Assembly: GCF_016903815.1 (NCBI RefSeq)
Contig: NZ_CP069973.1
DNA length: 64,000 bases
Strand: one strand, 5' to 3'
DNA from: Escherichia coli
GTDB lineage: Bacteria; Pseudomonadota; Gammaproteobacteria; Enterobacterales; Enterobacteriaceae
How positions within the stretch are numbered: position 1 is the first letter of the stretch; each line of letters starts with the position of its first letter. This document shows positions 20,888 to 23,420 of the stretch, in pieces. The notes beneath the pieces are model-generated. The model had not been told where the DNA came from and ran no database searches. It was given only the letters and a program-made list of their open reading frames with translations. A program made the position numbers and the translations under genes.

Positions 20888-21588
20888 CAGTCAATCAGCC
20901 CATGTAATCTAAGTGCTGTTTCAAGCGCCAGAATACGCTGCCGCGCCTGCTCCAAACCTGTAGCGATAGCTGCGACTTCGGATTGTGTGTACGTAGTGCC
21001 GACCGTGTATGACTGGTTAGCGTTGAATGAGCCAAGAAGTGGTGTGCCTGTGGCCGCCGTCCATCCGGTCTGCCTTGCTCCAACGACCTGAATTCCATCA
21101 ACTGAATATGATGTTTTTACATCCAGCGGTGACGCAAGAGACTGCGATTCTGTTACGGTTTTCGATACGTAATCACTCTTAATGCCAGAGACATCGTTTT
21201 CTACGTCATCCAGTCTTTGGTCAACAGTGACCAGATGCGCCTGAATATCGATAACCTCATCCAGCAAGTAATCAACATCGCTACGCAGTACGACTATCTT
21301 CCCTTCGGCAGTTGTTAACCTGACCTCAAGTAGATTTATCGCTTTTGTGTTTGCGGTGATTCTTGCGTCGTGATCAGCCAGTTCGACGTCCTGTTCATCG
21401 TTTTTTACCTGAGCATCGTAAGCGCCCTGACCAGCCTGATTTGCCTTCCCGGCAATTGCGCCAACATCAGCACCCTGATTTATGACATACAGCAGGTAAG
21501 ACTGGCTGAATATATTGCGTGGAAGGATTGATGTATCGAGCCGCGTCGCCTGCACAATAACAGGGGTGTTGAGATTCGAATCAGCCAT
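20887..21588 (-). CDS. Tail needle protein (P22 gp26 homologue)
   Basis: 233 aa; N-terminus [25 protein letters not shown]... and C-terminus ...[32 protein letters not shown] closely match my memory of P22 gp26. Confidence 0.85.
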
Positions 21589-21985
21589 TACTCAATCCTC
21601 TGCCTTGCAAACTCTCCAAAATTTTCTGCTCTTGCCATCATTGATGCTGAGATAGCTTCGTCCAGGTCATCGAAGCATCCAACGTGAACCTGTTTTTTAT
21701 TTTTCTTGAAAGAAACAGTCCACTTGCAGAGATTTTTGTGCCAACAGACACCAGGATATCCTGACTTATTATTTCTTTGAATATTCCTGTTCATCCCATT
21801 CTGGGATCTATTTGCCAATCTTAAATTTGAAAATCTGTTATCCGTTCTGTCTCCGTTAATATGATCTATTAAGCAATTTGCAGGTTTTCCTGTCATATAA
21901 AACCAAGCAAGCCTATGCGCTAAGTATCTCTTACCACAGACCATTATCCTTAAATAACCAGTGCACATGGTTCCTGGATTTGCCC

Positions 21986-22891
21986 CTATATTTCCAGACA
22001 TCTGTTATCACTTAACCCATTACAAGCCCGCTGCCGCAGATATTCCCGTGGCGAGCGATAACCCAGCGCACTATGCGGATGCCATTCGTTATAATGCTCG
22101 AACGCCTCTGCAAGGTTCTTTGCTGCCGTTAACCCGTCTGGTTTGGGCATGATACTGATGTAGTCACGCTTTATCGTTTTCACGAAGCTCTCTGCTATTC
22201 CGTTACTCTCCGGACTCCGCACCGCCGTGTTCTTCGGTTCAAGTCCCAACATCCGGGCGAACTGGCGTGTTTCATTAGCCCGGTAGCATGAACCATTATC
22301 CGTCAGCCACTCCACTGGAGACGACGGAAGATCGTTGCCGAAGCGGCGTTCCACCGCTCCCAGCATGACGTCCTGTACTGTTTCACTGTTGAAGCCGCCG
22401 GTAGTGACCGCCCAGTGCAGTGCCTCACGATCACAGCAGTCCAGCGCGAACGTGACACGCAGTCTCTCTCCGTTATCACAGCAGAACTCGAACCCGTCAG
22501 AGCACCATCGCTGATTGCTTTCTTTCACGGCCACTCTGCCTGTATGTGCCCGTTTCGATGGCGGTACAGCAGGTTTTCGCTCAAGCAACAGCGCATTCTG
22601 GCGCATGATCCGGTAAACACGTTTGGCATTGATCGCAGGCATACCATCAAGTTCTGCCTGTCTGCGAAGCAGCGCCCATACCCGACGATAACCATACGTG
22701 GGCAGCTCTCCGATAACATGGTGTATACGGAGAAGCACATCCGTATCATCAGTGTGACGACTGCGGCGGCCATCCATCCAGTCATCGGTTCGTCTGAGAA
22801 TGACGTGCAACTGCGCACGCGACACCCGGAGACAACGGCTGACTAAGCTTACTCCCCATCCCCGGGCAATAAGGGCGCGTGCGCTATCCAC
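21986..22891 (-). CDS. insD: IS2 transposase OrfB (InsD)
   Basis: 301-aa ORF; translation [30 protein letters not shown]... matches my memory of IS2 InsD; DDE integrase-type core. Confidence 0.9.
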
Positions 22892-23214
22892 TTTTTTGCC
22901 CGTCCATATTCAACGGCTTCTTTGAGGAGTTCATTTTCCATCGTTTTCTTGCCGAGCAGGCGCTGGAGTTCTTTAATCTGCTTCATGGCAGCAGCAAGTT
23001 CAGAGGCAGGAACAACCTGTTCTCCGGCGGCGACAGCAGTAAGACTTCCTTCCTGGTATTGCTTACGCCAGAGAAATAACTGGCTGGCTGCTACACCATG
23101 TTGCCGGGCAACGAGGGAGACCGTCATCCCCGGTTCAAAGCTCTGCTGAACAATTGCGATCTTTTCCTGTGTGGTACGCCGTCTGCGTTTCTCCGGCCCT
23201 AAGACATCAATCAT
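22849..23214 (-). CDS. insC: IS2 transposase OrfA (InsC), HTH DNA-binding
   Basis: ORF 22849-23259; start set at [26 protein letters not shown]... (121 aa); overlaps insD as expected for programmed frameshifting. Confidence 0.85.
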
Positions 23215-23420
23215 CTGTTCTCCAATGACTAGTCTAAAAACTAGTATTAAGACTATCACTTATTTAAGTGATATTGGTTGTCTGGAGATTCAGGGGGCCA
23301 GTCTAGTTCCCGCTTCATCACCAACGGTGACGCTCGCTGTATTTGATATTTTTCGGGTAAAAACCCCGGTTTCTGGGTCATATGATAAATGACGCTTCAA
23401 CTCTTCATGTGAAATCATTA

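Follow-up and report, generated by a model that had tools for sequence, protein, structure and literature searches.

IS2 is a classical source of polarity in bacterial operons. In the galEP3 reporter this polarity was attributed to Rho-dependent terminators, and it was overcome by antitermination (PMC3737525). The Q protein is a known suppressor of polarity (PMC12360218). Well-studied phage genomes are said to harbour active IS elements only rarely, and phage Sf6 is viable with IS911 in ninG, the loss of which proved adaptive in the laboratory (PMC5630979). The Sf6 copy of IS911, a member of the IS3 family, is intact and lies inside ninG, upstream of Q. Among the lambdoid phages, λ r32 carries another IS2 insertion. 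A link between the orientation of IS2 and its polarity is classical; a search for reports on IS2 "orientation II" in gal found none in the searchable literature.

Here we analysed a stretch of 64,000 nucleotides from Escherichia coli (the window), in which IS2 interrupts an HNH endonuclease gene within the late operon of a prophage. An earlier note on this DNA had described the insertion and suggested that it may be polar on the tail genes, leaving the prophage defective for virion production yet able to excise.

An intact IS2 in the late operon of an Sf6-like prophage

The window contains an Sf6-like (Lederbergvirus) prophage integrated at the tRNA-Arg(CCU) gene argW and bounded by two identical att cores (Table 1). 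The synteny and identity of its assembly cluster, the argW att core, and its int and xis genes all place it with Sf6. The block from the terminase genes to gp10 (window 31340-23420) shares 98.7% nucleotide identity with Sf6 335-8255, and a recognisable likeness to Sf6 extends to the integrase, immunity region, nin region, Q, and lysis genes. Measured from core to core with IS2 included, the prophage spans 39,208 bp (39.2 kb). In the PGAP annotation none of the essential genes to be expected is broken: the early and lysis genes are intact (int, a TorI-type xis, N, repressor, cro, cII, replication genes, Q, holin, endolysin, and spanin), as are the virion genes (TerS, TerL, portal, scaffold, coat, gp4, gp10, needle, gp14-like, three ejection proteins, and tailspike). 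The only gene marked partial is an ead/Ea22-like early gene. Since int, the TorI-type xis, and both att cores are intact, excision of the prophage is plausible. The large ORFs of a neighbouring island were scanned with PADLOC and Pfam, which gave no match.

Table 1. Coordinates of the prophage, IS2 and late-operon features in the window.
Feature	Position	Strand	Evidence or remark
attL core, CTGCAGGGGACACCAT, 16 bp	10820..10835	+	3' end of tRNA-Arg(CCU) argW; same as annotated Sf6 attP core
Downstream late genes: gp14-like; gp7-, gp20-, and gp16-type ejection proteins; tailspike	13778..20887	-	PGAP; phrog_651 = gp14-like
P22-type tail needle gene (gp26, 233 aa)	20887..21588	-	phrog_1219, E 1.6e-113
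HNH gene 3' fragment, codons 37/38-164	21588..21974	-	Keeps both HNH_3 and AP2 domains
Target-site duplication GTTCC, downstream copy relative to late operon	21970..21974		Single GTTCC at empty sites
Complete IS2, 1331 bp	21975..23305	-	IRL = 23305 end, IRR = 21975 end
IS2 orfB (insD) frame	21986..22891	-	phrog_157 transposase, E 1e-93
IS2 orfA (insC)	22849..23214	-	ATG at 23214; ORF list, PHROG transposase matches
Target-site duplication GTTCC, upstream copy relative to late operon	23306..23310		
HNH gene 5' fragment, codons 1-38	23306..23418	-	Frame enters IRL, stops at 23290
gp10-type head-completion (packaged DNA stabilization) gene	23421..24839	-	PGAP; in block 98.7% identical to Sf6, ending at Sf6 gene 8
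Late promoter PR', qut, tR' leader terminator	34458..34538	-	Placed by homology to annotated Sf6 features
Phage-21-type Q late antiterminator gene	34516..35034	-	E 1.5e-90 to PDB 6JNX, 3.5e-90 to 6P18
attR core, identical 16 bp CTGCAGGGGACACCAT	50028..50043	+	Same as annotated Sf6 attP core

The element in the late operon is 100% identical over all 1331 bp to copies annotated as "IS3-like element IS2 family transposase" in many complete E. coli genomes. On the minus strand, which also encodes its transposase and the late genes, it begins with TAGACTGGCCCCC and ends with GGGGCAAATCCA. Its terminal inverted repeats are imperfect, with about 29 matches over about 42 positions and one gap when the ends are aligned. 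The motif AAAAAAG (A6G) at 22891-22897 is the -1 programmed frameshift motif that fuses orfA and orfB, and PGAP gives a joined transposase CDS at 21986-23214 with the remark "programmed frameshift". A length of about 1331 bp, imperfect inverted repeats of about 41/42 bp, the A6G frameshift, and a 5-bp duplication are together characteristic of IS2 in the IS3 family. An intact, transposition-competent IS2 has inserted precisely, with the canonical duplication. The complete element, the GTTCC on both of its sides, its strand, and its place between the gp10 and tail needle genes had been reported in the earlier note, and every coordinate was verified in the sequence.

To place the insertion among other genomes, a 400-bp reconstruction of the empty site was used as a query against 5,426 complete E. 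coli genomes. Five genomes contained the empty site at 100% identity and a further 8 at 98-99%; in all 13 an intact HNH endonuclease (WP_021529423.1, 495 bp) is annotated adjoining "packaged DNA stabilization protein gp10". With the IS removed, the window aligns collinearly with strain 98192 for 25,933 bp, a span that starts at argW, takes in the entire late operon, and reaches ninB; this alignment has a single mismatch and no gap. Outside IS2, the late region is base-for-base the same as in IS-free relatives. Only 2 of the 5,426 genomes had the occupied junction. Both come from Houston blood isolates, strains 2779 and 5283, of which the former (NZ_CP103521.1) is identical to the window and the latter differs from it at 1 of 40,400 positions. 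The empty sites, the collinearity, and the occurrence of the occupied junction in two near-identical genomes establish that the insertion is real, precise, recent, and clonal, and that it is confined to one clinical lineage.

IS2 is multicopy, and repeats of this kind classically cause misassembly, which might have misplaced the element or created a duplication or a continuous frame that is not real. However, strains 2779 and 5283, whose complete genomes were assembled independently, share the same junctions; the 5-bp duplication is perfect; and once the IS is taken out, the sequence is exactly that of 13 other genomes, without a gap across 25.9 kb. An assembly or sequencing artefact is thus effectively refuted, and its probability is negligible. 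The earlier note had made its claim depend on error-free junctions and on the HNH frame being a single gene in relatives, and the 13 genomes indeed carry it as an intact single gene.

Only one "phage" record, vB_EcoP-683R2, has an intact HNH gene. It was rejected as proof of a viable IS-free phage, since the record describes a PHASTER-predicted prophage rather than an isolated virus and only mixed induced lysates were assayed.

The interrupted HNH gene and its distribution

Joining 23418..23311 to 21974..21588 yields an ORF of 495 nt encoding 164 aa in an unbroken frame, which confirms that a single in-frame HNH/AP2 gene is restored by excising IS2 and one copy of the duplication. In the reconstructed protein, Pfam identifies an HNH_3 domain at residues 53-97 (E 7.6e-16) and an AP2 domain at residues 107-153 (E 2e-4), and the ORF matches PHROG 99, "HNH endonuclease" (phrog_99, E 4e-70). 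PGAP calls the 3' fragment a 137-aa "HNH endonuclease" starting at an ATG at 22001, within IRR; inspection of the sequence upstream of this ATG revealed no convincing Shine-Dalgarno sequence. Because the 38 N-terminal residues that are lost lie in a conserved part of the PHROG 99 profile and the start codon of the 3' fragment is poorly supported, we infer that the insertion inactivates the nuclease. The annotated 137-aa "HNH endonuclease" and IS2 transposase in strains 2779 and 5283 are accordingly to be read together, as what is left of a single 164-aa accessory gene.

In Sf6, gene 8 (gp10) and gene 9 (needle) directly overlap with no insert between them. The alignment of the window with Sf6 breaks off precisely where gp10 ends (window 23420) and picks up again where the needle gene begins (window 21599). 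On either side of the HNH cassette lies one copy of an imperfect 13-nt duplication of the gp10/needle junction, AGGCTGGAGTAAT and AGGATTGAGTAAT, of which Sf6 has AGGATTGAGTAAT. Among the other P22-like phages, HK620, CUS-3, IME10, and further members match only the gp10 end of the query. The cassette occurs in 15 of about 500 E. coli genomes sharing the gp10 end, and is thus absent from about 97% of such prophages. A comparison with related P22-like phages had been proposed in the earlier note, and its outcome is that the HNH gene is lacking from Sf6, HK620, CUS-3, IME10, and most related prophages.

Homologues of the HNH protein, with at most 48% identity, are found in 3,578 phage records, often in multiple copies and commonly annotated as homing endonucleases. 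Its sporadic presence between adjacent conserved genes, its HNH_3 and AP2 domains, and its multicopy homologues point to an accessory, free-standing, homing-endonuclease-like cassette rather than a core phage function. As the gene appears to be accessory, loss of its first 38 codons presumably costs the phage nothing essential. The locus may then be viewed as one selfish element (IS2) within another (the homing-endonuclease cassette) within a third (the prophage).

The earlier note had also raised the idea that the HNH protein is needed for packaging, as in some phages that encode one near the terminase. This idea did not hold. The small terminase (phrog_309, E 4e-67) is encoded by the gene upstream of TerL, and the HNH gene is not adjacent to the terminase genes. 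Since it is absent from most close relatives, the HNH gene cannot be a core packaging factor, and such a role is ruled out by its position, its homing-type domain architecture (HNH_3 and AP2), and its patchy distribution. Sf6, with which the window shares 98.7% identity in the head and terminase genes, is a headful packager (PMC5630979). We also considered whether the extra 1.3 kb produces an oversized genome that exceeds the headful and abolishes terminal redundancy. With IS2 the prophage is only 165 bp longer than Sf6 (39,208 versus 39,043 bp), and this possibility was rejected on the basis of these sizes and of the near-identity of the head genes.

Predicted polarity of IS2 in the late operon

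The genes from gp26 to the tailspike all lie downstream of IS2 in the same operon, and no promoter is predicted past the element. As the frameshift is infrequent, a read-through transcript would probably leave most of IS2 orfB untranslated and in principle exposed to Rho. Starting from such considerations, the insertion may be taken as strongly polar, so that the prophage excises, replicates, and fills heads but yields no stable infectious virions and is effectively defective. The Rho-dependent terminators of IS2, the classical polar insertion (PMC3737525), favour this outcome, as does a stretch of about 1.2 kb of read-through RNA that would be poorly translated. We nevertheless regard it as unlikely, because several features of the operon argue against it.

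The first is antitermination. Window 35033-34458, with the Q gene and the PR'/qut/tR' stretch, shares 97.9% identity with Sf6 35485-36060. This Sf6 region, described as phage-21-like, has PR' annotated at 35980-36009, qut at 36007-36055, and tR' at 36019-36063, most of the last within the aligned stretch. The Q-family match, together with the conserved PR', qut, and tR' upstream of the late operon, is consistent with late antitermination of the Q21 type. We infer that the late operon is read by a polymerase modified by a phage-21-type Q, which would resist both Rho-dependent and intrinsic termination.

The second feature is the composition of the IS2 RNA. We compared C and G content in 78-nt windows, a crude proxy for rut sites and hence for Rho loading. 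In the late-operon sense, C exceeded G in 13% of the windows and the C/G ratio reached at least 1.3 in 1%, compared with 81% and 40%, respectively, in the opposite orientation. In the neighbouring late genes the corresponding values were 38-51% and 13-21%. Transcribed in the late-operon sense, IS2 RNA is thus G-rich, with very few windows in which C exceeds G and without Rho-loading-like stretches, and judged by this composition it is a predicted poor substrate for Rho. Moreover, intrinsic-terminator prediction on the minus strand from 21300 to 23700 returned no site.

The remaining points concern the needle gene and the precedent of Sf6. The needle ATG overlaps the HNH stop codon (TAATG), and the gene has its own Shine-Dalgarno sequence, GAGGA, seven nucleotides before the ATG. 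Sf6, in turn, remains viable with IS911 lying ahead of an essential gene in an antiterminated operon. The earlier note had inferred polarity from the strand that IS2 shares with the late operon. In view of the G-rich sense RNA and the lack of a predicted minus-strand terminator, the shared strand argues against polarity rather than for it, and the inference is further weakened by the Q21-type antitermination and the Sf6 precedent. Strong polarity on the needle, ejection, and tailspike genes therefore appears unlikely from these predicted features.

A different proposal is that the insertion is functional, either because read-out from IS2 drives repressor-independent expression of the needle, ejection, or tailspike genes in the lysogen or because loss of a mildly toxic nuclease was selected. 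IS2 does have its transposase sense directed towards the late genes downstream, terminator prediction gave no site at the IRR end, and the insertion persists in two isolates of one lineage. The two isolates are near-identical, though, and reflect clonal descent rather than selection, and a lysogen has no evident use for the downstream proteins. A hybrid outward promoter at the IRR junction was also considered and rejected, as no promoter-like or hybrid promoter sequence is predicted there on the minus strand. The promoter of IS2 itself is weak and autorepressed. A functional insertion is accordingly extremely improbable. Slightly less remote, but still very unlikely, is a combination in which IS2 is essentially non-polar in its G-rich orientation and also permits low-level, repressor-independent read-out of late genes in the lysogen. 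If this were true, the lineage would offer a natural experiment on whether IS2 polarity depends on orientation and on whether Q21 antitermination carries across 1.3 kb of foreign insert.

The explanation that we favour is that IS2 landed recently in an accessory 164-aa gene with HNH_3 and AP2 domains between the gp10 and tail needle genes, and that the loss of the HNH N-terminus would carry no essential cost to the phage. Polymerase modified by Q21 would pass IS2 despite Rho-dependent and intrinsic termination, and expression of the needle, ejection, and tailspike genes would be affected modestly at most, with a partial reduction possible. The IS2-bearing genome, at 165 bp more than Sf6, would fit a near-identical head. 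Antitermination, the G-rich IS2 RNA, the lack of a predicted terminator, the ribosome-binding site of the needle gene, and the genome size all speak for a modest downstream effect. Such an effect, together with a dispensable target gene, suggests that the prophage most likely still excises and makes particles. Because IS911 loss is adaptive in Sf6, the insertion may carry a fitness cost. On the sequence features considered here, we hold this account as a whole, including the probable dispensability of the HNH gene, to be likely.

The insertion is an ordinary one, already visible in the RefSeq annotation, and holds nothing surprising for a specialist; its importance extends little beyond annotation. 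For practical purposes, the prophage should not be scored as defective on the IS2 insertion alone, and the lineage could be used as a natural system for examining how polar an IS is when Q antitermination operates.

Comparison with described systems

The HNH gene resembles the free-standing HNH_3/AP2 homing endonucleases of PHROG 99 in its domains, its small size, and its sporadic presence between adjoining conserved genes, and in having many, often multicopy, homologues in unrelated phages. It differs in that its closest homologues outside this prophage type are at most 48% identical, and the likeness is one predicted from sequence. With the HNH protein of the HK97 gp74 type, which is required for cos-site cleavage and packaging, it shares only an HNH motif and a location in the morphogenesis region of a phage. 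In contrast to the HK97 case, the host phage here is a headful (pac) packager of the Sf6 type, the Pfam family and architecture differ, and the gene lies between gp10 and gp26 rather than next to the terminase.

Like IS911 in Sf6, the IS2 described here is an intact IS3-family element in a gene that is probably non-essential, within an antiterminated operon and upstream of essential genes. IS911, however, lies in the early-right, N-dependent operon and is oriented opposite to phage transcription, whereas IS2 is co-oriented with the late, Q-dependent operon and separates its head-completion and needle genes. The insertions of IS2 in operons and lambdoid phages, such as galEP3 and λ r32, involve the identical element, a 5-bp duplication, a polycistronic operon, and Rho-dependent polarity as the classical outcome. 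Compared with insertions of the galEP3 type, the operon entered here is predicted to be Q-antiterminated, IS2 lies in the orientation that gives G-rich RNA, and the target gene is itself a putatively dispensable selfish element.

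Borders of the HNH cassette and IS2 load

The HNH cassette, the endonuclease gene that IS2 splits between the gp10 and needle genes, is flanked on both sides by a 13-nt imperfect direct repeat (21587-21599 and 23420-23432). The repeat units, AGGCTGGAGTAAT and AGGATTGAGTAAT, are copies of the gp10-stop/needle-start junction. Because this junction repeat brackets the cassette, the HNH and needle genes both retain the GAG-TAA-(TA)-ATG coupling context. The repeat looks like a footprint of the cassette's mode of insertion. A mosaic boundary coincides with the cassette (window 20887-21599). 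Resemblance of the needle gene to that of Shigella phage Sf6 is confined to the first ~232 nt (75% identity), against 98.7% for the upstream genes, and its 233-aa product is of the P22 type (phrog_1219), not of the knobbed Sf6 type.

The query spanning the IS2-occupied site matches at 2 places in strain 2779 (NZ_CP103521.1) and at 4 in strain 5283 (NZ_CP103762.1), which are near-identical blood isolates from Houston. IS2 load thus appears to differ between the two strains, and this apparent difference suggests ongoing IS2 transposition in their lineage. Apart from the IS2 insertion, the only annotated lesion in the prophage lies in the ead/Ea22-like early-left gene, which PGAP calls partial with its N-terminus missing.

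Features of the prophage and of the adjoining element
Feature	Coordinates	Strand	Remarks
DUF1796 putative cysteine peptidase	12270-12926	minus	member of divergent pair
GDSL esterase/lipase	13122-13658	plus	member of divergent pair
Small terminase gene	31252-31692	minus	146 aa; phrog_309
ead/Ea22-like gene	47468-48181		early-left
Tyrosine integrase gene	50207-51493		second element
Small HTH/MerR-type regulator genes	within 50044-60350		second element
'Rolling circle replication-associated protein' gene	53557-54609		second element
Large ORF, 330 aa	55408-56400	minus	neighbours 821-aa ORF
Large ORF, 821 aa	56397-58862	minus	neighbours 330-aa ORF
Recombinase-family protein gene	59567-60193		second element

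A tandem element beyond attR

A second integrative element of ~10.3 kb (50044-60350) abuts the prophage attR in tandem. At its far end the 3' end of argW recurs for a third time, as a partial copy (60328-60350, 23 bp). A Pfam scan of its two large ORFs returned no match, and none of five proteins from the element was matched by PADLOC. The element could represent an island that is satellite-like or carries defence cargo.

Differences from Sf6

The nucleotide match of the small terminase gene to Sf6 gene 1 begins only at Sf6 position 335; therefore, most of the gene has been exchanged, and this exchange could alter pac-site specificity. ON470594.1 wrongly labels this gene 'HNH homing endonuclease' and the true HNH gene 'endolysin'. 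Sf6 carries Asn and Thr tRNA genes after the late leader terminator tR', whereas the prophage lacks both (window 34274-34458); Sf6 36061-36194 is left as a gap in the alignment, and the sole tRNA found by ARAGORN in the window was argW. Between int and the tailspike gene, where Sf6 places the O-antigen acetylase gene oac, the prophage instead has a divergent gene pair (12270-13658). A PHROG search with the DUF1796 member gave no match. Compared with oac in Sf6, the DUF1796 and GDSL pair may represent a different lysogenic-conversion module.
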